DNA of 64,000 bases. Origin: a virus. Made by a program: the position numbers and the translations under genes. Below, piece after piece: positions 9,184 to 30,590 of the stretch. Below the pieces are notes generated by a model. The model did not search any database, was not told the DNA's origin, and worked only from the letters and a program-made list of their open reading frames with translations. The stretch's first letter is position 1. The number at the start of each line of letters is the position of its first letter. The stretch covers positions 1 through 64,000 of the IMG/VR virus record IMGVR_UViG_3300043331_001676; one strand, given 5' to 3'.

Positions 9184-9432
9184 ATGAAGCTTACTTCTCA
9201 AACCTCTGATTATGCCCTTGAGGAAGTTCCTGGTTCACAGTACCAGACAGTTGAACAGTGCCAGGAAGCGCTTCTTGAGCCACTGGCCCGGTTGATCGCC
9301 GAGATGATCTGCCAGGCCCGGTTAGCAGATGAGGGCAAACGTGATACAATAGAGCCGTGTCCTGAGAACTTCCTGAGCGCAACCGAAGGGTTTATCGAAG
9401 GACCAAAAAACTTCGAGGCGAGCAATGTTTAA
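9184..9432 (+). CDS. Small protein upstream of the integrase (RDF candidate)
   Basis: AGGA RBS; overlaps the integrase start; function inferred from position only. Confidence 0.45.
   Translation: MKLTSQTSDYALEEVPGSQYQTVEQCQEALLEPLARLIAEMICQARLADEGKRDTIEPCPENFLSATEGFIEGPKNFEASNV
9322..9350 (+). promoter_or_regulatory. Possible dedicated integrase promoter
   Basis: TTAGCA-17 nt-TACAAT with extended -10 TG. Confidence 0.5.
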
Positions 9433-11032
9433 GTTTCCCCCTTGTCCGCTGCCGCCCTTCTCGCGGGTGTGGCTCTACCTGCGCGATTCCGGCGGCGACA
9501 ACCAGGATTTATCCAGCCAACGGGCTTACGGCCTGGCCTACTGTGAGCATTACCGGCTTCAACTCGTGCGTGGTTTTGAGGATAGCGCCGTAAGCGGTGG
9601 CTCAATCAAGGGTCGGGATGAATTTGAAGCCATGATCGAGCTGGCCCGGACAGGCAAAAACCCTCTCGTAAACGCCATCCTCTATTGGGATACAAAGCGA
9701 TTCGCCCGCAACCAAACTGATTCTCAGTATTATAAAGCCCTGCTGAGGCGACATGGCTATAAACTCATCTCGCTTTCTGATGATATTCCTGATAATGAAC
9801 TCTCGTTCGTGTTTGAGGCGTTTTTAGAGTGGAAAGCCCAAAAGGACAGAGAAGATTTATCAAAGGACATCAAACGAGGGATGTCCCACATTGTAAGCTT
9901 GAGAGACAGCGATGGCAATTATCTGGGCATCTTCCCCGGTGCTCTGCCAACATTCTTCAAAGGCATCCCCTACAATACCGGCATTACCAGAAACGATGGC
10001 AGCGTCAGGATTCTCCAACGCATTATCCCCGACCCCGATACATGGCCCCTGGGCCAGCGGGCCTGGCAAATGCGGGCCGACCGGGCCAGCTACCAGGAGA
10101 TCGAAAGAGCCTTGCAGATTTTTCCGAAAAACCCCAACCCTTCGCCCACCTACTACTATCTTTTCCGCAACGAGATTTACATCGGCCGGCTGCGCTACAG
10201 CGGCCAGGTCTACGAAAACTTCGTGCCGGCCCTGGCTACCCCAGAGCAGTGGGAGCAGGTGCAGGAGTTGAGTTACGAGCGGCCCAGAGCCAATACGTCT
10301 TTTCCGGCCGACAAGCTGCACCCCAAGGCGGGACGCGGGGGTTTCCTGCTCTCCGGCCTGTGCCAGTGCCTTTACTGCGCGGCCAATATTCATGGCTCGA
10401 CCAACCGCCGGCCCGAACGCCAGACCGCCTGGCGTTACTATGTCTGCTCGACCAAGGAGAAGCGGCCCGAGCAGTGCCGGGAGAGCAAGCGGCTGCCGGC
10501 GCACAGGATCGAGCACGAGGTGGTTGATTTTGTGCTTTCACGGGTGCTGACCGTTGACTTCGTGAGCAAACTGGCCGAGCGGGTCAACGCTATCCTGAAC
10601 AATACCGAGGTCATTCAAGACGAGATCGAGCGGCGGCAAAAGCGGTTAGGCGAGCTTCGCCGGGCCGTAAGCAGCTTGCTGGATGCGATTGAGCTGACCC
10701 CATCCACCGACCTTCTGGAGCGCCTGGCCAGGCGGCAGAGAGAACGAGATACCTGCGAGCGAGAGTTAAAACAACTGCAAGCACAGATGAGTACAAACCG
10801 CTATCTGGTTGATGAAACTTCTATCTTGAACCTGCTGACCGAAATGCGATCAACGCTAACGGCCGGGGAAATTAAGGCGAGGCAACTCATACTGCAAGGC
10901 GCAGTGGTCAAAATCGAGCTGGGCCGTGACGCGGGCCGGATCCATTATCGCTTCCCATTGACACGGGTTTATTTAGAGCGGGTAAACTGGCTCGAATTAA
11001 ACCCTGTACAAATTTACGACTTTGAGTATTGA
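9425..11032 (+). CDS. int: Large serine recombinase (integrase)
   Basis: YLRDS catalytic Ser, D..SG...R, RFARN, recombinase domain, LSGLCQCLYC...YYVC...C zinc ribbon, coiled coil. Confidence 0.95.
   Translation: MFKFPPCPLPPFSRVWLYLRDSGGDNQDLSSQRAYGLAYCEHYRLQLVRGFEDSAVSGGSIKGRDEFEAMIELARTGKNPLVNAILYWDTKRFARNQTDSQYYKALLRRHGYKLISLSDDIPDNELSFVFEAFLEWKAQKDREDLSKDIKRGMSHIVSLRDSDGNYLGIFPGALPTFFKGIPYNTGITRNDGSVRILQRIIPDPDTWPLGQRAWQMRADRASYQEIERALQIFPKNPNPSPTYYYLFRNEIYIGRLRYSGQVYENFVPALATPEQWEQVQELSYERPRANTSFPADKLHPKAGRGGFLLSGLCQCLYCAANIHGSTNRRPERQTAWRYYVCSTKEKRPEQCRESKRLPAHRIEHEVVDFVLSRVLTVDFVSKLAERVNAILNNTEVIQDEIERRQKRLGELRRAVSSLLDAIELTPSTDLLERLARRQRERDTCERELKQLQAQMSTNRYLVDETSILNLLTEMRSTLTAGEIKARQLILQGAVVKIELGRDAGRIHYRFPLTRVYLERVNWLELNPVQIYDFEY
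10958..11011. other. Probable attP site within the integrase 3' end
   Basis: 22-bp imperfect inverted arms (16/22 match) around the 10-bp core GGGTAAACTG. Confidence 0.7.
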
Positions 11033-13767: not shown

Positions 13768-14421
13768 ATGATAACGCTTAAGCTCGGCACTAAACAGGAC
13801 CTCGACTGGGCGCAGGCCGTCGCCCTAAAGTATCACTACCTGCACCAGCGCGTGGACAACCGGGCCAGACCTATGGTCTACCTGGTTACGATAGCCGGGG
13901 TCCGGCTGGGTCTGGTCATGGTCGGCATCCCCCACGCCACCCGCTGCCGGGGTTGGTGGGGCTATCCTGGCCTGCCGACCCAGTGGCAGGTGCTGGACCT
14001 GTGCCGCATCTGGCTCGACCCGGCCATCCAGGCTGGCGGCGAATTTGCCAGGCCCGGTTATGTCCCCGGCTTCGTGGACCGCCACGGCCAGTTTCGCCCG
14101 ACCGTGGCGAGCTGGGCTATCGGCCAGGTGCTGGAGCGGTTACAGCGGGACTGGATCAGCCTGTGGCCGCCGGTCTTTCCTGAGCGGCCTTATCACATTC
14201 GTCTGGTCATCAGTTATCACGACCCGAAGCATCACAGGGGGACCATCTACCGGCTAATGAAAGCCCTGCCGATGTACACCGACAAAAGCAAGCTGCCTAT
14301 CCCTGGACCATCCGGCAAGTTCGGCTGGTGCTGGCGGCTGCCGGAGCCGGCCTGGGAGTGGCCGGAGGTCGAGATCAGGCAGCCGCGCACCATGCGGCTG
14401 GAGTTGGGGGACTATGGCTAG
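13768..14421 (+). CDS. Mom-like GNAT-fold DNA modification protein
   Basis: YHYLH, GLVMVG.P, DLCRIWL, VISYHDP..HRGTIYR resemble phage Mu Mom-family motifs. Confidence 0.65.
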   Translation: MITLKLGTKQDLDWAQAVALKYHYLHQRVDNRARPMVYLVTIAGVRLGLVMVGIPHATRCRGWWGYPGLPTQWQVLDLCRIWLDPAIQAGGEFARPGYVPGFVDRHGQFRPTVASWAIGQVLERLQRDWISLWPPVFPERPYHIRLVISYHDPKHHRGTIYRLMKALPMYTDKSKLPIPGPSGKFGWCWRLPEPAWEWPEVEIRQPRTMRLELGDYG

Positions 14422-14611
14422 AGTGCTCCGGGGCGCGGTCCCGGCCCACGACCAGAAGCTTGAGCCGGAGGCTCGACTATTGATCGCGGTCTTCCGGCAG
14501 GCCCGGATTGATCTATTTTCAGCCTCGGACCAGATCAGGACCATGGCCGAGCGGTTCCTGGCCTCGTATGGCTACGATGTCGAGGAGATCAGGGCTTGCT
14601 GGAAGCGATAA
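14414..14611 (+). CDS. Small phage hypothetical protein
   Basis: RLLIAVFRQARIDL helix; GGGGG RBS. Confidence 0.55.
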   Translation: MARVLRGAVPAHDQKLEPEARLLIAVFRQARIDLFSASDQIRTMAERFLASYGYDVEEIRACWKR

Positions 14612-14645
14612 ATCAGAACGAGCGTTTCGAGAAAGGACACTGACG

Positions 14646-15644
14646 ATGGGCGAAAATAGCAAGATTGAATGGTGTGACCACTCCTGGAATCCGTGGATTG
14701 GCTGCGTCAAGGTTAGTCCTGGCTGCAAGTTCTGTTATGCCGAGGAGCTAATGACCCGCAAGGGGCGCTGGGCCAACACATGGGGACCGGCACAGACTTC
14801 CGAACGGATTAAAACCAGTGATGACAACTGGCGCAAGCCCTTGCGGTGGAATCGACAGGCCCAAAAAGAGGGACGGCGGTTCAAGGTCTTTTGCGCGTCG
14901 TTGGCCGACGTGTTTGAAGATAATCCCCAAGTTTATGATTGGCGGCTTCAGCTATTTAGCCTTATTAGCGAGACGCCTAACCTGGATTGGCAGATACTAA
15001 CCAAGCGGCCTGAATTTGCCAGGGCGTTTTTTGAGAAGCGCCCACACTTGCTTTGGCCCAATGTTTGGCTTGGTACGAGTGTCGAAAATCAGGAGCAAGC
15101 CGATAAGCGCATACCCGAATTGCTCAGGACCCCGGCTCAGGTTCGTTTCCTGAGTTGTGAGCCGCTTTTGGAGCCGGTACGGTTGGCTGATGCGTGGTTA
15201 TATGATTATGTAACTGATAGGCGAGACGCTTGTTTTATTGATTGGGTCATTGTTGGCGGCGAATCAGGACCGCAGGCGAGGCCGATGCACCCCGAATGGG
15301 CGTGGCAAATCGAGCGGCAATGTGAAGCGGCAGGCGTAGCCTTTTTCTTTAAGCAGCACGGCGAATTTATTAGCAAACCCGAAATTGCCGATTTGACCGA
15401 AGATGGATGGAAGGTCAGGCCAGAATGGTTGCCGATGATTCAAGGTAGCCGGTGGGGTTGTCTTGACATCAACGGAAAGTACAGGCCGGAAACTACAACC
15501 TGGAATGGGCGGCAAAATGATCCACAGGATGATTATGAGGTTACGGTTTATAAGGTCGGCAAACATAACGCTGGTCGCCTGCTCGATGGCCGGACGTGGG
15601 ACGAGTTCCCCGACACCGCCACGCTTGAGCCGGCCACACTTTAA
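14646..15644 (+). CDS. DUF5131 / phage Gp37-Gp68 radical-SAM-like protein
   Basis: SKIEWCDHSWNPWIGCVKVSPGCKFCYAE, LTKRP, FLSCEPLL, WVIVGGESG, FFKQ; AAAGGA RBS. Confidence 0.92.
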   Translation: MGENSKIEWCDHSWNPWIGCVKVSPGCKFCYAEELMTRKGRWANTWGPAQTSERIKTSDDNWRKPLRWNRQAQKEGRRFKVFCASLADVFEDNPQVYDWRLQLFSLISETPNLDWQILTKRPEFARAFFEKRPHLLWPNVWLGTSVENQEQADKRIPELLRTPAQVRFLSCEPLLEPVRLADAWLYDYVTDRRDACFIDWVIVGGESGPQARPMHPEWAWQIERQCEAAGVAFFFKQHGEFISKPEIADLTEDGWKVRPEWLPMIQGSRWGCLDINGKYRPETTTWNGRQNDPQDDYEVTVYKVGKHNAGRLLDGRTWDEFPDTATLEPATL

Positions 15645-20266: not shown

Positions 20267-20483
20267 ACGCCGCCGGCGCAGGCGCGAGTGCGAGGGCAAG
20301 CAGCGCTTCGAGAGTCCCGAAGCGGCAGGCCGGATGATCGGCTGGCTGGCCCGCATTGGCCGGCTCAGGCCCGGCACCCACGCCTACCCCTGCGATTTCG
20401 GCAACCACTGGCACATTGGCCGGGGCAGGAGAGGGCTGCGCCGGCAGCGGATCAAGAGCTGGCAGTGGAATATGGGAGTATGA
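20256..20483 (+). CDS. Small basic zinc-binding phage protein
   Basis: C.GKQRF...AYPCDFGNHWHIG. Confidence 0.65.
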   Translation: MSSKRRRRRRECEGKQRFESPEAAGRMIGWLARIGRLRPGTHAYPCDFGNHWHIGRGRRGLRRQRIKSWQWNMGV

Positions 20484-20484
20484 G

Positions 20485-21786
20485 ATGACTTTAGTAAAAC
20501 AAACCAACCGCCGTATCTCTTTTTTTGACGACCAGCGCTTAACTCAGAGCGAGGCTATCGAGCTGACCGCGCAGGCGCTTATCTACTACATCGGCCAGTA
20601 CCCGGACGTGGTTGTGTCCTATTCCGGCGGCAAAGACAGCACGTCTTTGCTGACCCTGCTCCTGGTTCTGATCGAAGCCGGGCGGGTGCCCCGGCCCAGG
20701 TCGCTGCGGGTGCTCCTGGCTAATACGCGGGTCGAACTGCCCCTGCTGCACCTGGCGGCCCTCCAGATCATGCAGATCGTGCGAGAAAAGGGCTACCTGG
20801 CACAGGTGGTCGAGCCTCCCCTGGATGACAGGTTTTTTGTGCGCATGTTCGGCTTTGGCTATCCACCCCCACACAATGGCTTTCGCTGGTGCACCGATCT
20901 CTTAAAACTCAAGCCGATGCTGACCGCGCTATTAGCGGCGCGCCAGGCTGCCGGCCAGAAATTTCTGGCCTTGACCGGGATGCGTATTGGGGAATCAGCC
21001 ATGCGCGATCAGCGGATTGTCCTGGCCTGTGGCAGCAAGGATGGCGAGTGCGGCCAGGGAGCTATCCTGGCCCAGGCCCAGGAGAAGGCCAGGAAGGGTG
21101 GGGATAAATTTGGCCTGTACGAAAGCTCCCCGATCTCTTACCTTTTTACCCACACCCCGGCCAGTGAACCCGCCGATGTGCTTTCGCCCTTGCTTCACTG
21201 GCGTGTCTGCCATGTGGCCGACTGGCTGATGCTGGAAGCGCCTTCCTACGGCTTCCCCACCCATCGTGTGCTGGAAGCTTACGGGGCGGGCGTGGGCGAT
21301 AGTGAACCGCTCGAGGCCCGCACCGGCTGCATCGCCTGCCCGGTCGCGGGTAACGGCGATCCGGTCCTGGTCAAGACCACCAGGCTGCCGGGCTGGGAGT
21401 ACCTGCGGCCCCTGCTGCGCCTGCGCGACCTGTACAACGAACTATCCAGGCCGAAGTACCGTCTCAAAAAGTCCGGCGAGCGCAACAAGGACGGCAAGTT
21501 ATCCTCCCGGCCCAACCGGGGCGGACCACTTTTATTTGAGTCACGCCTGTATGGGATGGAGCAGGTATTGCGGATCCAGGCCGAGGTGAATGAAGGCGCG
21601 CGAGCTGCGGGCCGGCCCGAGCTGGTCTTGATCAGCGACGAGGAAAAGACCCGCATCCTGGAACTTATCGAGGCTGAAACCTGGCCTCAGAAATGGAGCG
21701 GGGATGATCTCCGGGGGGATGCGCTGGTAGACCTGGTGGTAGGCGAAGGATTGACCCAGCCGGTTTTGGCCGGGCTGAAAATATAA
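20485..21786 (+). CDS. DndC-like phosphoadenosine-phosphosulfate reductase family protein
   Basis: PP-loop SYSGGKDS, GYPPP..FRWCTD.LK..PM, G.R.GES..R, ARTGCIAC. Confidence 0.85.
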   Translation: MTLVKQTNRRISFFDDQRLTQSEAIELTAQALIYYIGQYPDVVVSYSGGKDSTSLLTLLLVLIEAGRVPRPRSLRVLLANTRVELPLLHLAALQIMQIVREKGYLAQVVEPPLDDRFFVRMFGFGYPPPHNGFRWCTDLLKLKPMLTALLAARQAAGQKFLALTGMRIGESAMRDQRIVLACGSKDGECGQGAILAQAQEKARKGGDKFGLYESSPISYLFTHTPASEPADVLSPLLHWRVCHVADWLMLEAPSYGFPTHRVLEAYGAGVGDSEPLEARTGCIACPVAGNGDPVLVKTTRLPGWEYLRPLLRLRDLYNELSRPKYRLKKSGERNKDGKLSSRPNRGGPLLFESRLYGMEQVLRIQAEVNEGARAAGRPELVLISDEEKTRILELIEAETWPQKWSGDDLRGDALVDLVVGEGLTQPVLAGLKI

Positions 21787-21818: not shown

Positions 21819-22958
21819 ATGACCAATCAAATTCAAACGACGCCAATCACAATACCGCTGGCCAAATTAAAAACAGGCCGGTACCAGCAGCGCAAGGCGT
21901 TTGATGTAGCCGAGATGGGCGGCCTGGCCCGGACAATAAAAGCCGGCAAGCTAATGTTTCCACCTATGGTTATGGCAGTCAACGGCCATTATGAGCTGAT
22001 TGCCGGCGACCGGCGTCGGCGCGCGCTGTATGCCCTGGCCCTGGAATCAGACGGCATGGGGATGGACCAGGCTTTAACCCTGGTTTGCAGTCCGACCGTA
22101 GACCAACTGCCGGACCGCTTCCCGGTGCTGCACAAGATAACAGTGCAGGTCAATCTGAGCCAGGAAACCGACCCTGCCACCCTGCAAACCCTGGCAGCAA
22201 TCGAGAACCTGCAACGGGTTGATTTGACCCCACTGGAGAAAGCAGTGGGGTTTCAAAGTCTGCTCGATGACGGCCTGACCCTGGCCGAGGTTGTCGAGCG
22301 TACCGGCGAAAAAGCCTCTTCCATCAAGCGCTATCTGGCCCTGCTCTCGCTGCCGGAGCCTGTTCAGGAACATTTCGACAAGCGGCGTATCCCCCTTGAT
22401 GTCCTGAAAGAACTGAGCGGGCTGCCCAAAGAAGTACAAATCCAGGTAGCCGAAAAGATGGCAGGCCGCAAAAGTAGTGAAATCAAGGCGCTGGTCAAGA
22501 TGGTTCAGAAGCGGCTGTCTAACTCGCCTCGTGCAACCCCCGGTAACGGATTATCAACGCTGCCGGCGTCGGAAACGGAAGGGGTATCGCTCGGTCTGGA
22601 TAGTACAGAAGTGGAAGCCAATGCGATAGAAACCCGGCCCGCCTCGATTCGGGAGCAGTTGGCCGGGGCGAAGGAGATAATCTCCAAACTCACCATGCAG
22701 CTTCACCTGGATAGCCGGTTACTTAGAATGTGCGCGGAAGAGTTAATTGCTTGCACTCCCGACTCGCGCGTAGCGCTGATAGCCAACGCCAGAGCTGAGC
22801 AAATCGAGCGGTCAATCAAGCTGCGCAAGCGGCAGCCGCCGGTGGCCCAGGTGCAGCGTGGTCTAAAGATCGAGCGCTTCATGGAGAAGCGGCAGCGTGG
22901 CATCAGGCTTCGTCCTGAAGCTCAGCCCGAAGGGAGGCGAGATGCCCAACCTGGTTGA
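21819..22958 (+). CDS. ParB/Spo0J-family protein
   Basis: YQQRK.F, YELIAGDRRRRA, IENLQRVDLTPLE, HTH. Confidence 0.85.
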   Translation: MTNQIQTTPITIPLAKLKTGRYQQRKAFDVAEMGGLARTIKAGKLMFPPMVMAVNGHYELIAGDRRRRALYALALESDGMGMDQALTLVCSPTVDQLPDRFPVLHKITVQVNLSQETDPATLQTLAAIENLQRVDLTPLEKAVGFQSLLDDGLTLAEVVERTGEKASSIKRYLALLSLPEPVQEHFDKRRIPLDVLKELSGLPKEVQIQVAEKMAGRKSSEIKALVKMVQKRLSNSPRATPGNGLSTLPASETEGVSLGLDSTEVEANAIETRPASIREQLAGAKEIISKLTMQLHLDSRLLRMCAEELIACTPDSRVALIANARAEQIERSIKLRKRQPPVAQVQRGLKIERFMEKRQRGIRLRPEAQPEGRRDAQPG

Positions 22959-26406: not shown

Positions 26407-26534
26407 GAGGGTGATTGTGACTGATCTCATCCTACAACCAATTGGTTTGCTGTTCAACCCCAATTATTGGGGGTACTAAGGATAAGTTCGCAGGCCGGTC
26501 TCCCAGAATTATAAACGAGTGTTAGGAGATTTAA

Positions 26535-26918
26535 GTGATGCCATTTTCTCAAGAGGACCTTATCAGGGGCTTCGGCGACAAACTGTTTGGCCTGCTCACA
26601 ATGACCCAGGCCGACCTGGAAGCGATCCAGGCGCGGGTAGAGGCGGCGACACCGGGGCCGTGGGAAGGGCGACCAAGGCTTTTGCATAATGGTCGGGAGA
26701 TAAGCTGCGAGATCGTGGGGAATATACATCCCGGCTGGGCTACCCCGGTCTGTCAGCTTTCACCCGGCTTTGCCTGGTACGAAAATGACAAAGATTTTTT
26801 GACCAGTGCCCGCACCGACATCCCCGCCCTCCTGGCCGAGATCGAGGCCCTGCGCCGGGCCTGCTACCATTACGCTACCCAGATGGGGCGATGGGGTGAG
26901 AAGGGCAAGAAAAAATGA
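26535..26918 (+). CDS. Ead/Ea22-like phage protein
   Basis: AATPGPW...DFLTSARTDIPALLAEIEALR. Confidence 0.75.
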   Translation: MMPFSQEDLIRGFGDKLFGLLTMTQADLEAIQARVEAATPGPWEGRPRLLHNGREISCEIVGNIHPGWATPVCQLSPGFAWYENDKDFLTSARTDIPALLAEIEALRRACYHYATQMGRWGEKGKKK

Positions 26919-28033
26919 CCGGCTACTTCGGCGTCATCGGCAACCGCGACTACATCAAGATCAAGGGTGAGCGCCGGCCCTTCTGGGAGTTCCTGGACCG
27001 GCAGCCGGCCGGCTGGCTGTGCTCGCTGGCCTACAGTAGAACTGATGTGCCGGCTGCGCCGATGATCTGGGACTGCGGAGCCTGGAGCTACAAGGCCCAG
27101 GAATCGCCCCGGCTGGGCAAAACAGAAGTCACCCCGGCCTGGGCTGCCGGCCAGTATACCCAACTGGCCCGCCCCGGCGATTTCGCCGTCGCCCCCGACC
27201 ATATGCTTATCCCCTTCGCGGGGGTGGACATCGAGGCTCGCCGGCACTTCAACCGCGCCTCGGCCCTGACCTTCATCGAACTCTGCCCGGCCCACCTGCG
27301 CCCGATGGCCGCCGTCCACGGCCTGAGTTTGGCTGAACGAATCGAGAACGCGCGTTTTCTTATGGATGCCGGCTACCACACGCTGGCCCTGGGCGGCCTC
27401 GCGGGGCAGGCGAATAAACGACAGATGATTTTTGAAGTGGTCGGCGCGATCCGCCGTGAATTCCCCGGCGTCTGGCTGCATGTCCTGGGCCTGTCGTCGC
27501 CGGGCTATGCGGCTGAGTGGCAGCGAATAGGGGTGGACAGTTTCGACGGGGCCAGCCACTTCAAGCAAGCCTTCACTGCCGGCAAGTTCTTTATGGAGCA
27601 GGACGGCAAGCTCGCCGGCTACCAGGCGGCCCGGCCTGGCCAGCCTGTCACGGCCCCGGCTTGCGACTGCCTGGCCTGCCTGCGGCTGCGGGCTGAAGGC
27701 GTGGACACCCGGAGCTACGGCTCCAACGAGCATAATATGGGCCGGGCCGCGCACAATCTGAACCAGTTGATGAGGGCTATTGACATCCAGGCCGTGCGCT
27801 CCCCCAGTTTCCCGCTAGATTGCCCGACCGGGGCAGCCGGCCGGCGAGATAACCGCTTGCCGCGCCACTGCGCGGGCTGCCGGTCCTTTCAGGAGAAGGG
27901 CGGCCTACGATGTGTGTACCCTGATTTTGCCAACGATCATCTTGAATTCATCCAGGCTCACCTGGCTCGGACTGGATCGCTGAAAGAGATCGAGTGGACC
28001 CTGCGTGGTGATAACCGGCCCGGGGTCAGGTAA
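26915..28033 (+). CDS. dpdA: DpdA-like DNA guanine transglycosylase (TGT fold)
   Basis: DCGAWSY, APDH, AVHG, LALGGL, LHVLGL, VDSFDGAS nucleophile motif, CDCLAC...HNL zinc site. Confidence 0.8.
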   Translation: MTGYFGVIGNRDYIKIKGERRPFWEFLDRQPAGWLCSLAYSRTDVPAAPMIWDCGAWSYKAQESPRLGKTEVTPAWAAGQYTQLARPGDFAVAPDHMLIPFAGVDIEARRHFNRASALTFIELCPAHLRPMAAVHGLSLAERIENARFLMDAGYHTLALGGLAGQANKRQMIFEVVGAIRREFPGVWLHVLGLSSPGYAAEWQRIGVDSFDGASHFKQAFTAGKFFMEQDGKLAGYQAARPGQPVTAPACDCLACLRLRAEGVDTRSYGSNEHNMGRAAHNLNQLMRAIDIQAVRSPSFPLDCPTGAAGRRDNRLPRHCAGCRSFQEKGGLRCVYPDFANDHLEFIQAHLARTGSLKEIEWTLRGDNRPGVR

Positions 28034-28047
28034 TTGGAGTTAAAGTT

Positions 28048-28404
28048 ATGAGCACCCTCGACCAATACCGCTTAGGCTACGCGCTCAAAAGCAAGCGGTC
28101 CGGCCTGGACCTGAACCTGCGCGAGGTGGCCGCTGCCACCGGCATCAGCACTTCGACCCTGTCGCGGGTCGAGAACGGCAAGGGCCACCTGCTGCAAATA
28201 GATACCTTTCTGGCCCTGTGCGACTGGCTGGGGGCGGACCCGGCCAGCTTCATCGTGCCCGGTACGGAAGCAAACAGCGCACCCGAAATGGGCGACCTGG
28301 AGGAGATTGAGGTCCGGCTGCGGGCCTGCCTGGAAGCGCCGGCGCTGTGTAAGGCTATCGCCGAAGTCATCCGGCTGATCAGGCTTGAGCAAGCAAATTC
28401 ATAA
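28048..28404 (+). CDS. XRE-family HTH regulator
   Basis: LREVAAATGISTSTLSRVENG. Confidence 0.9.
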   Translation: MSTLDQYRLGYALKSKRSGLDLNLREVAAATGISTSTLSRVENGKGHLLQIDTFLALCDWLGADPASFIVPGTEANSAPEMGDLEEIEVRLRACLEAPALCKAIAEVIRLIRLEQANS

Positions 28405-28421
28405 GAACGGAGGATCATCGA

Positions 28422-29126
28422 ATGTTACCTGTACTGATCGGCTGCCGGGGCAATGACCCAGATGCGCCCAAACTGCTGAAAGCTGAGGGCTGGCGTTATG
28501 GTTTTCGGAGTGATGCAACGCCTTACGGCTGGCCTTACTTCGTAGACATCAAATGGTGTGATTATATTTGGTCTAGCCATTTGGCAGTCATTCGTGAATG
28601 GCGGCCCGTAATAGCGATGGTAGCCGATTATGAATCTCTGACTCGGCAATCTTTTATGTTAGCCCAGATTCGTGACATCTCTTCTCTGGGTGTTCGGCCT
28701 ATGGTTTGCCCCAAGTTTTCAGGCGCAGTAGCCGACATTCCAAAAGGTTGCATTGTGGCTGTTTCTGTACCAACCGATTATGCCGGCTTCTTACCTGAAC
28801 CAAGCGAGGTCAAGGGGCGAGAGTTGCATCTTCTCGGCGGCCATCCTGACCAATTTAGGGTGCTGATTCAGCGATATAATCAAAGCAAAGTAGTAAGTAT
28901 TGATTGTTCGGCTATTTTTCAAAAGGCGCAATTTGGGGCTTTTTGGAGCGCAAAACGAAACACATGGAGACATGTGAAGCATCGCTTTTCTACTCACGCA
29001 CTTACCAGAATGAGTGCAAGGCAAGTCACTACATATCTGGGTCAACCCCCTAAGTTATTCCTAAAACAGAGGAAGCGGCTGTACCAGGTTGGCTTCGAGC
29101 TGAAGCCTTCATTGTTTCAAATTTAA
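28422..29126 (+). CDS. DUF6610-like short TGT-related protein
   Basis: FVD..W, VCPKF, SVPTDYAG, LHLLGG.P, VVSIDCS....AQFG; lower GC than flanks. Confidence 0.6.
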   Translation: MLPVLIGCRGNDPDAPKLLKAEGWRYGFRSDATPYGWPYFVDIKWCDYIWSSHLAVIREWRPVIAMVADYESLTRQSFMLAQIRDISSLGVRPMVCPKFSGAVADIPKGCIVAVSVPTDYAGFLPEPSEVKGRELHLLGGHPDQFRVLIQRYNQSKVVSIDCSAIFQKAQFGAFWSAKRNTWRHVKHRFSTHALTRMSARQVTTYLGQPPKLFLKQRKRLYQVGFELKPSLFQI

Positions 29127-29134
29127 CCCTGATT

Positions 29135-29854
29135 ATGGAGAAGCAATTTATGGAGAAGCAATCAACAAACTTTAAAAAGCACAAAGACGATGAATTTTTT
29201 GACCGCATTGACCTGATAGAAAAACGCACCGGCCAGCCGCTGATCCGGCTGATCGTCGTTCCCCGCTACAAGACAAGCGGCTTAAGTGGGGACGAGTGGC
29301 GCATTAGCGGGCAGATTCAAATCAACAAAGGAAGCCGTTGGGAGCACTTTGACCGGCACTTCCTCGACCTGGAAACGGCGACGATAGGGCTGTATCCGGC
29401 CATCTTTGGCCATCCCAGGTTGCACCAGGTCAGCATTGCCCACGCCGACTTTTACCGTAAAGGGGTTAAGGTCTACGAGTCCACATACGACGGCAAGCTG
29501 CTGCCCCTGATTCACGTCGCCGGCCACCTGCCCTGGGCCTTCATCCTGGCCCGTGAAAATGTGGAGCCGGGAAATTGGGACGAGTTCTGTTTTCAGCCCA
29601 GTTGCTCAGCCGAGGCGGTTTCGACCTATCAGTTGAAATACGAGTATTGCCACCGGGGCCATAAAACCAAGCCTGTAACCGGCCCATATCATCGCCGGTT
29701 CTGCAAGCGGCATTTGAGGCGTGGCAACTGCGGCCTGGAAGATGCGGATGAGAATTACATCGTCATCGAAGGCCTCGGTCCCGACCAGGCCGAGGGCTGG
29801 GAGGAAGACGCCAGGCCGGCTGTATTTGGCGGGTTTATTGATTTAGCAAAGTAG
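29135..29854 (+). CDS. Cys/His-rich hypothetical protein
   Basis: PRYKTSGLSGDEWR; CFQPSC...FCKRH..RG.C..ED. Confidence 0.65.
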   Translation: MEKQFMEKQSTNFKKHKDDEFFDRIDLIEKRTGQPLIRLIVVPRYKTSGLSGDEWRISGQIQINKGSRWEHFDRHFLDLETATIGLYPAIFGHPRLHQVSIAHADFYRKGVKVYESTYDGKLLPLIHVAGHLPWAFILARENVEPGNWDEFCFQPSCSAEAVSTYQLKYEYCHRGHKTKPVTGPYHRRFCKRHLRRGNCGLEDADENYIVIEGLGPDQAEGWEEDARPAVFGGFIDLAK

Positions 29855-30190: not shown

Positions 30191-30370
30191 CACTGCCTCC
30201 AGCAGTTTACCGAGGAATGGCCGCTCTCCTCCCTTTTGGGTCACTTTCTCCAGGGCCGAGTGGTACAGTGTCCGACCTGCGGCCTTCGGCAACTGCTGCA
30301 TCCACCGCAGCCGGCCACGGCCATCGTGGTCAGTATTGATCCGGTTGACCCCAAAAAACCTATTGCCTAA
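30125..30370 (+). CDS. Small zinc-ribbon protein
   Basis: C...HC and CPTC pairs. Confidence 0.55.
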   Translation: MIVIFKCASEGEMIVIFKCASEHCLQQFTEEWPLSSLLGHFLQGRVVQCPTCGLRQLLHPPQPATAIVVSIDPVDPKKPIA

Positions 30371-30521
30371 TCTTTCCACCTGTGATAGACTCATAACCAA
30401 GCGGCGGGTAGTCCATCATTGGCTACTCTTGCCGCTTCGTTTTAAAAGCGCCAAAGCTTTTGGGACGAAATCTAAAAGCACCTCGGACAACCCGCCGCCG
30501 TCCGAGGTGTGCTTTTTTAAA

Positions 30522-30550
30522 AGGATGAAGGATGAAGGATGAAGGATGAA
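30522..30550 (+). repeat. Heptamer tandem repeat (AGGATGA) x4
   Basis: Direct reading. Confidence 0.9.
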
Positions 30551-30590
30551 ATAAAGAAAATGTTCCCCCTCACTCCTCATCCCTCTAAAG

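Follow-up and report, generated by a model that had tools for sequence, protein, structure and literature searches.

DpdA proteins serve as a signature of 7-deazaguanine modification in DNA. In the Dpd system of Salmonella Montevideo, DpdA (7UI4) is the enzyme that inserts preQ0 into DNA, and this bacterial enzyme (bDpdA) needs DpdB. Gedara et al. described a conserved DpdA active site of D95, F99, D130, H181, G182, G206, G207, L236 and D256, in which D95 and D256 proved essential by mutation (PMC10164549). DUF6884 is the domain of DpdC, the enzyme by which preQ0 in DNA is turned into the amide ADG (PMC11888242; PMC10516641). Cui et al. (2023) assigned to the DUF6610 protein HVTV1_69 the transglycosylase role that had been unaccounted for in a halovirus whose DNA has 30% dPreQ1, and named the group DpdA4 (PMC10516641). 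The group was described as specific to archaeal viruses, with singleton genes in some of them, e.g. HF2, and HHpred linked DUF6610 to tRNA-guanine transglycosylase (TGT) at 92.5% (PMC10516641). Here we describe a phage locus in which a DpdA-like gene and a DUF6610 gene stand in one short run. It lies in the first 64 kb (the window) of the IMG/VR viral record IMGVR_UViG_3300043331_001676 (G000), which is linear, 79,023 bp long and about 81% complete. A first-pass annotation of the window had placed two TGT-fold genes on either side of a helix-turn-helix (HTH) gene. The three open reading frames (ORFs) were confirmed on the + strand at 26915..28033, 28048..28404 and 28422..29126, and both fold assignments proved right. 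The exchange of guanine for 7-deazaguanine in DNA is itself already known; what is new is the combination, in one phage, of a new bDpdA-like clade and a DpdA4 of the bacterial-phage kind.

The 372-aa protein and the DpdA-like clade

The first gene encodes a protein of 372 amino acids (aa) that is predicted from its sequence and structure model to be a DpdA-type DNA-guanine transglycosylase. Profiles and Foldseek indicate that its catalytic core (residues 1-296; 26915..27802, + strand) is a triose-phosphate isomerase (TIM) barrel with a zinc subdomain. The match to the Pfam TGT family was barely above the cut-off (27.1 against 26.3 bits), and the same Pfam search of related records overlooked the DpdA-like gene of another viral genome, G001, indicating that it is insensitive for this clade. 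The NCBIfam and PADLOC models of DpdA matched with 73.5 bits (E 1.4e-20) and E 7e-20, respectively, both below the cut-offs of those models. In phmmer searches, Salmonella DpdA was matched with an E value of 2e-6 compared to 0.017 for tRNA TGT. Foldseek gave a similar ranking for the structure model (predicted local distance difference test, pLDDT, of 83.6 overall and above 90 in the core), with 8.7e-15 for 7UI4 and about 1e-9 for the best tRNA TGT. Salmonella DpdA is the best match by both sequence and structure, although the identity over the structural alignment is only about 16% and the 372-aa protein differs in being phage-borne and in ending with a short Cys-rich tail.

The residues expected of such an enzyme are in place. 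In an alignment of 30 homologues, D53 (in DCGAW), W57, D95-H96, H135-G136, G160-G161, H189xL191G192 and S209xD211 are invariant, as are the zinc ligands C250, C252, C255 and H280, which align with the CxCxxC...H motif of 7UI4. The nine active-site residues of bDpdA listed above correspond, in the same order, to D53, W57, D95, H135, G136, G160, G161, L191 and D211; the pairing of D95 with bDpdA D130 was set by motif (PDH versus LDH), the phmmer alignment being shifted there. The alignment thus upholds the catalytic Asp motifs, the zinc site and the Cys-rich tail noted in the first-pass annotation. The tail (residues 297-372, with four Cys; 27803..28033, + strand) occupies the site where relatives have DUF6884/DpdC. 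It is common only to the two closest full-length relatives, P0122 and P0125, and its pLDDT of 32-61 per 10-residue block gives no confident fold. P0122, which is 70% identical to the 372-aa protein and comes from an Anaerolineae metagenome-assembled genome (MAG), provides the only clue to the host.

The wider family points to 7-deazaguanine chemistry. We found 347 homologues of the 372-aa protein in a large protein collection. About half of the best matches are approximately 300 aa long, and the other half are approximately 440 aa long with a C-terminal DUF6884; the fused domain of P0131 matches the PADLOC DpdC models. DUF6884 is fused or directly adjacent in eight of nine related IMG/VR records, and QueD follows immediately behind the DpdA-like/DUF6884 fusion in two (G009 and G010). 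Some relatives adjoin QueD, QueC and QueE, and QueC, QueD and a radical SAM gene all occur in a complete 148-kb phage (G007). These que neighbours and DpdC fusions indicate that the family belongs to 7-deazaguanine DNA modification on mobile elements. The family also occurs on conjugative cyanobacterial plasmids (Nostoc PCC 7120, Chroococcidiopsis and others), with or without the DpdC domain. There the genes lie near ssb, parAB and transfer genes, in regions typical of anti-restriction functions, and without que genes. Such a setting would fit a role in anti-restriction for plasmids too. A DpdA-like gene with neither DUF6884 nor DUF6610 was found in G006 and on the Chroococcidiopsis plasmid. 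The family is a previously unclassified, bDpdA-like clade whose members stand alone, are fused to a DpdC domain or are followed by DUF6610, in phages and on conjugative plasmids. This clade, together with the range of DUF6610 described below, widens the settings in which 7-deazaguanine modifications should be sought.

Since their fold and catalytic residues are common to tRNA TGTs, and the Gly-rich loop of the 372-aa protein (GGLAG in the alignments) resembles that of bacterial TGT, one or both enzymes might act on tRNA instead of DNA. We consider this most improbable. DpdA ranks above TGT by both sequence and structure for the 372-aa protein, relatives carry the DNA-acting DpdC domain as a fusion, and no PUA or tRNA-binding domain was found. 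As for the second protein, the DNA of HVTV-1 has dPreQ1 and DUF6610 is its only candidate insertase. Action of the 372-aa protein on tRNA alone, which was raised earlier as an observation that would overturn the first-pass annotation, is unlikely for the first two of these reasons.

The 234-aa protein and the range of DUF6610

The second gene (28422..29126, + strand), which has a GGAGG ribosome-binding site upstream, encodes a 234-aa protein of the Pfam family DUF6610 (PF20314), matched with 92.2 bits (cut-off 27; E 4e-26) over profile positions 4-192 of 198. The protein is 25% identical to HVTV1_69 (E 6e-8), and both belong to phrog_23010. Its motifs LHLLGG (135-140) and SIDCS (159-163) are both invariant. 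Residues that do not vary between this protein, HVTV1_69, Knocker gp1 and the GNAT fusions described below are G27, R29, D42, W45, P62, D69, P97, S115, Y120, H136-G140, S159 and D161. The sequence contains no Cys cluster and thus no zinc site. Both motifs, the missing zinc site and the lower GC content (0.478, and 0.451 at third codon positions, GC3) agree with what had been noted from the sequence at the outset.

The AlphaFold model of the 234-aa protein (pLDDT 94.5) is an eight-stranded barrel, and its top Foldseek matches are TGTs (E 3e-5). In comparisons with VIA-align, 227 of the 234 residues aligned with ArcTGT at a Z score of 15.1 and a root-mean-square deviation (rmsd) of 4.2 Å, and 211-220 residues aligned with bacterial or human TGT at Z 14.2 and rmsd 3.0-3.3 Å. 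Model and alignments together describe a predicted TGT-like TIM barrel with three invariant Asp, which disposes of the earlier reservation that the protein might not be a TIM-barrel TGT homologue. A deeper profile-profile alignment between DUF6610 and the DpdA-like family gave 70% probability (E 3.9e-5). It places D42, W45, D69, HLLGG and D161 on D53, W57, D95, HVLGL and D211 of the 372-aa protein, with per-column confidence that is good only in the HLLGG-to-SID region. An earlier hhalign comparison reached 15% probability over the last two strands, and a forced global alignment was meaningless. At the level of sequence, the published HHpred link and our profile comparison do settle the kinship of DUF6610 with TGT.

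The 234-aa protein resembles HVTV1_69 in Pfam family, PHROG, invariant residues and TGT-like fold. It differs in its low identity (about 25%) and in having no counterpart of the 134-aa N-terminal extension of HVTV1_69. The genetic setting also differs, as the 234-aa gene is found in a bacterial-type soil phage, without an adjoining preQ1 pathway, and is paired with a second DpdA. To examine how far DUF6610 extends, a profile search was performed on 1.84 billion representatives, and this returned 714 clusters, of which 515 reached E <=1e-10. The sources named include Terriglobales MAGs, Flavobacteriaceae MAGs and many haloarchaeal plasmids, and DUF6610 also occurs in IMG/VR records with bacterial-type neighbours. 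A scan of viral contigs returned 0 loci with a single-sequence query and 5 loci with an alignment-based query.

Among cultured phages, Mycobacterium phage Knocker (MZ150786) was the sole non-archaeal DUF6610 match. Its gp1 (1-1317), annotated merely as a ParB-like nuclease domain protein, has a ParB-like domain at residues 7-172 and DUF6610 at residues 199-408 (110 bits). The genes behind it encode FolE, DpdA (gp3, of phrog_887, the usual phage type), QueC, QueD and QueE. Knocker gp1-gp7 thus resembles the present locus as a bacterial phage with a DUF6610 domain and a DpdA two genes apart. It differs in the fusion of DUF6610 to an N-terminal ParB-like domain, in its phrog_887-type DpdA and in its full set of FolE, QueC, QueD and QueE. 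A full-length ParB-DUF6610 fusion was seen in only about three records. Knocker, the bacterial-type records and the MAGs show that DpdA4 is not confined to archaeal viruses, which corrects the range stated for the group. Our literature search found no paper tying DUF6610 to a bacterial phage.

About one third of the best 150 DUF6610 representatives have an N-terminal extension of approximately 140 aa, which is a GNAT acetyltransferase in those checked (e.g. P0057 and P0071); P0249 combines GNAT, DUF6610 and ParB_N in one protein. The GNAT-DUF6610 fusions hint, at the sequence level, at an acylated DNA base or other coupled chemistry. The ParB, GNAT and DpdC fusions all bear on mechanism, and the small, precursor-free genes are candidates for sequence-specific DNA base exchange.

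Two candidate base-exchange enzymes in one phage

We propose, at a probability of roughly one half, that the phage encodes two active DNA base-exchange enzymes that use a host-made 7-deazaguanine as an anti-restriction measure. The 372-aa enzyme would be a bDpdA-like, zinc-containing insertase, and the 234-aa enzyme would be a minimal, zinc-free enzyme of the DpdA4/DUF6610 type from another lineage. By analogy with TGT and DpdA, each may flip out a guanine, whose base may be displaced by a nucleophilic Asp (D211 in the 372-aa enzyme, D161 in the 234-aa enzyme), so that enzyme and DNA are joined in a covalent intermediate. Another Asp (D53 and D42, respectively) would serve as general acid/base, and the 7-deazaguanine base would be inserted. 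The host queuosine pathway would provide preQ0 or preQ1, the phage apparently making none, and the outcome would be partly modified phage DNA that resists restriction. Known DpdAs are reported to leave some of the guanines unmodified, and a strict target motif is described for at least one such enzyme (PMC10484667; PMC10516641). If modification is partial and bound to a motif, a second enzyme with another motif or base would widen protection. The two enzymes probably represent two target-sequence specificities or two accepted bases. The comparisons show the folds, the conserved residues, the ties of the family to que genes and DpdC, and the lack of que genes in the record; from them we infer that the substrate is DNA, that the base is preQ0 or preQ1 from the host queuosine pathway, and that the second enzyme contributes to protection in this way.

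Two active enzymes are favoured because both catalytic sets are complete, because accessory subunits normally lose catalytic residues and because DUF6610 is the sole candidate insertase in HVTV-1. The full triad and the HVTV-1 arrangement likewise favour an independent DUF6610 insertase over the tailoring enzyme that the first-pass annotation had suggested. A different division of labour is conceivable, however, in which the DUF6610 protein is a partner of the DpdA-like enzyme, either as a TGT-fold subunit that holds or opens the DNA, like QTRT2 or DpdB, or as a stand-in for the DpdC domain. In the eukaryotic TGT heterodimer QTRT1/QTRT2, two TGT-fold paralogues perform one job and QTRT2 is non-catalytic; here, in contrast, both proteins keep the catalytic Asp. 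The distribution of the genes speaks for a partnership, since DUF6884 and DUF6610 never occur with the same DpdA-like gene: eight related records have DUF6884 without DUF6610 and two have DUF6610 without DUF6884. This mutual exclusion is suggestive, the sample being small and the gene also occurring with neither domain. In G001 the DpdA-like and DUF6610 genes are directly adjacent, and in Knocker gp1 and P0249 DUF6610 is fused to domains of the ParB type, to which DpdB-like partners belong. We nevertheless regard a mere partner as unlikely. The Asp triad is invariant family-wide, although non-catalytic subunits usually lose it, and in HVTV-1 DUF6610 is the only TGT-like gene and lies beside a full preQ1 pathway. 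Moreover, DUF6610 mostly occurs without any DpdA-like gene, and the DpdA-like gene also occurs with neither partner, as in G006 and on the Chroococcidiopsis plasmid.

The pairing itself was examined in related genomes. In G001 (locus L009; IMG/VR, 99 kb, 96% complete), a DpdA-like gene with 59% identity is followed after 41 nucleotides (nt) by a DUF6610 gene with 67% identity. No HTH gene lies between the two in G001, and no QueC, QueD, radical SAM or DUF6884 was found in that genome. Knocker represents an independent second pairing with another DpdA lineage. Altogether, DUF6610 adjoins 7-deazaguanine genes in three settings (HVTV-1, Knocker, and G000 with G001), and in two of these it stands with a second, unrelated DpdA.

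The precursor supply was addressed by searching the whole 79,023-bp record, where no QueC, PTPS/QueD, GTP cyclohydrolase I (FolE), radical SAM or QueF was found. This extends the earlier observation, made for the window, to the rest of the record. Host supply of the base is supported by the absence of que genes from both G000 and the 96%-complete G001, and it fits the DpdA-like family, which commonly travels without precursor genes and stands alone on conjugative plasmids. Scavenging of a host base is the only interpretive part of the first-pass annotation to gain support in this way. More tentatively, the DUF6610 enzyme of bacterial phages could take a base other than preQ0, such as preQ1 or a GNAT-acylated derivative. 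The phage would then write two different guanine replacements with host precursors only, a possibility that we rate as rather unlikely.

A number of observations weigh against the proposal. The pairing is rare, with 2 cases among about 12 loci that have a DpdA-like gene and 2 among about 30 that have DUF6610, and these co-occurrence counts rest on few loci. Four other DUF6610 viral records and about 20 metagenome loci have no DpdA-like gene nearby, and nine DpdA-like records have no DUF6610. Close DpdA-like relatives (79-85% identity, on 12-24 kb contigs) had no listed DUF6610 match from a contig of the same size. The DUF6610 gene itself looks recently acquired, since its GC3 of 0.451 is more than 3 standard deviations (sd) below the mean of 18 long phage ORFs (0.737, sd 0.088, minimum 0.562); GC3 is 0.786 for the DpdA-like gene, and the G001 homologue of DUF6610 is of normal composition. 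The adjacency could therefore reflect an accessory-gene hot spot, with DUF6610 as a recent cassette that is unrelated in function to the DpdA-like gene and works on a different base or simply as a DNA glycosylase. The HTH gene between the pair here, which has no equivalent in G001, and the frequent GNAT acyltransferase fusions, which hint at chemistry beyond preQ0 insertion, would also suit such a cassette. We think this explanation improbable, as DUF6610 has come to lie beside 7-deazaguanine genes in each of the three settings above, and two phages with proteins only 59-67% identical both have it in the same place behind the DpdA-like gene.

The other points against two active enzymes concern the proteins themselves. 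The 372-aa protein reached 73.5 bits against a cut-off of 200 for NF041059, the NCBIfam bDpdA equivalog, and is thus a member of a separate clade and not of that equivalog. It matched no PHROG (E <=0.01), and hence none that holds phage DpdAs (e.g. phrog_887), and a tblastn search of 50,697 phage records gave a single weak match. By sequence it falls outside every tested subfamily, its standing relative to DpdA1/2/3 being judged by the PHROG non-match. No DpdB was found among the eight proteins scanned with PADLOC, which include the ParB-like protein at 21819-22958. On fold alone the kinship of the 234-aa protein would be unsettled, because other TIM barrels tie with TGTs on Z score (PdxJ, Z 14.4, rmsd 2.9 Å, 180 residues aligned). 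No DUF6610 protein has biochemical proof of activity, and the authors of DpdA4 obtained no activity in E. coli (PMC10516641). Finally, as the record is about 81% complete, precursor genes may lie in the missing part.

Gene order and other features of the window

The two genes are part of a closely spaced run at 26535-29854, entirely on the + strand. An ORF of 127 aa (26535..26918, + strand) matching phrog_1667 and phrog_722, both of unknown function, is preceded by a gap of 325 nt. Its end and the beginning of the DpdA-like gene overlap by 4 nt, stop over start, which makes this ORF the opening gene of the densely packed, same-strand run. Between the DpdA-like and DUF6610 genes lies the 118-aa HTH protein (28048..28404, + strand; HTH_31/XRE, E 3e-10), by sequence an ordinary regulator of the XRE type. 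An orphan ORF of 239 aa with a Cys/His-rich C-terminus (29135..29854, + strand) starts 8 nt past the DUF6610 gene. Profile scans and searches for relatives returned no family and no relatives for it, and the G001 locus has no counterpart. An Rfam scan of the window and the surroundings of the genes matched no family, and thus no preQ1 riboswitch.

Upstream are genes for a serine integrase (9425-11032), a DUF5131 protein, a DNA methyltransferase, a DnaC-like loader, a DndC-like protein of the 3'-phosphoadenosine 5'-phosphosulfate (PAPS) reductase type, a ParB-like protein, an HTH_17 protein, a Cas4-like exonuclease and a small methyltransferase. The presence of the serine integrase indicates that the phage is temperate. 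The module could in that case mark the DNA of the lysogen, both host and prophage, and so serve as the modification arm of a self/non-self system of the Dpd kind rather than protect the virion, and the 372-aa protein is indeed closest to the bacterial Dpd enzyme and has relatives carrying DpdC. The surroundings make such a role very unlikely. The DpdB, DpdC and restriction operon of the Salmonella system were not found beside the 372-aa gene; the eight PADLOC-scanned proteins included no DpdB, no DpdC, no DpdD-K and no other Dpd restriction component, and the record contained no DUF6884. In addition, the two genes belong to a run devoted to replication and DNA metabolism that lies immediately upstream of the genes for packaging, and the plasmid-borne relatives lie near ssb, parAB and transfer genes, as is typical of anti-restriction functions.

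Several other features of the window were recorded. The DndC-like protein (20356-21786; PADLOC DndC, E 4e-26; phrog_12882, E 8e-108) is directly followed by the ParB-like protein (21819-22958), which consists of ParB_N and HTH_ParB and has no PADLOC DpdB match. These two genes may form a separate DNA-modification pair. For the DUF5131 protein (14508-15644; 292 bits), matches were also obtained to PDC-M41B and PDC-M30B, two PADLOC models of defence candidates (E ~1e-61). An ORF of 217 aa at 13768-14421 has a weak match to the Mom family (E 0.02). In the viral record L033 (2357-2548), a 79-aa stretch with 37% identity to this ORF stands directly after a DpdA-like gene. The ORF does not resemble the GNAT domain that is fused to DUF6610.

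Exact pieces of the window are contained in several soil metagenomes, and no RNA dataset was listed with such pieces among public runs. The 12-bp palindrome AAACGMGCGTTT occurs at 5 sites (17751, 25516, 32790, 38789 and 52778), while shuffled sequences lead one to expect 0; the copy near 26513 is an imperfect variant. A short element at 30350-30583, with a strong hairpin at 30479-30509, reached a summed contig depth of about 1000-1480 in four soil metagenomes, compared to 0-10 in its flanks, and breaks at 30519-30521 and 30550-30555 are common to many contigs. The element has the look of a repeat, or a small mobile element, that is very abundant and widely shared.

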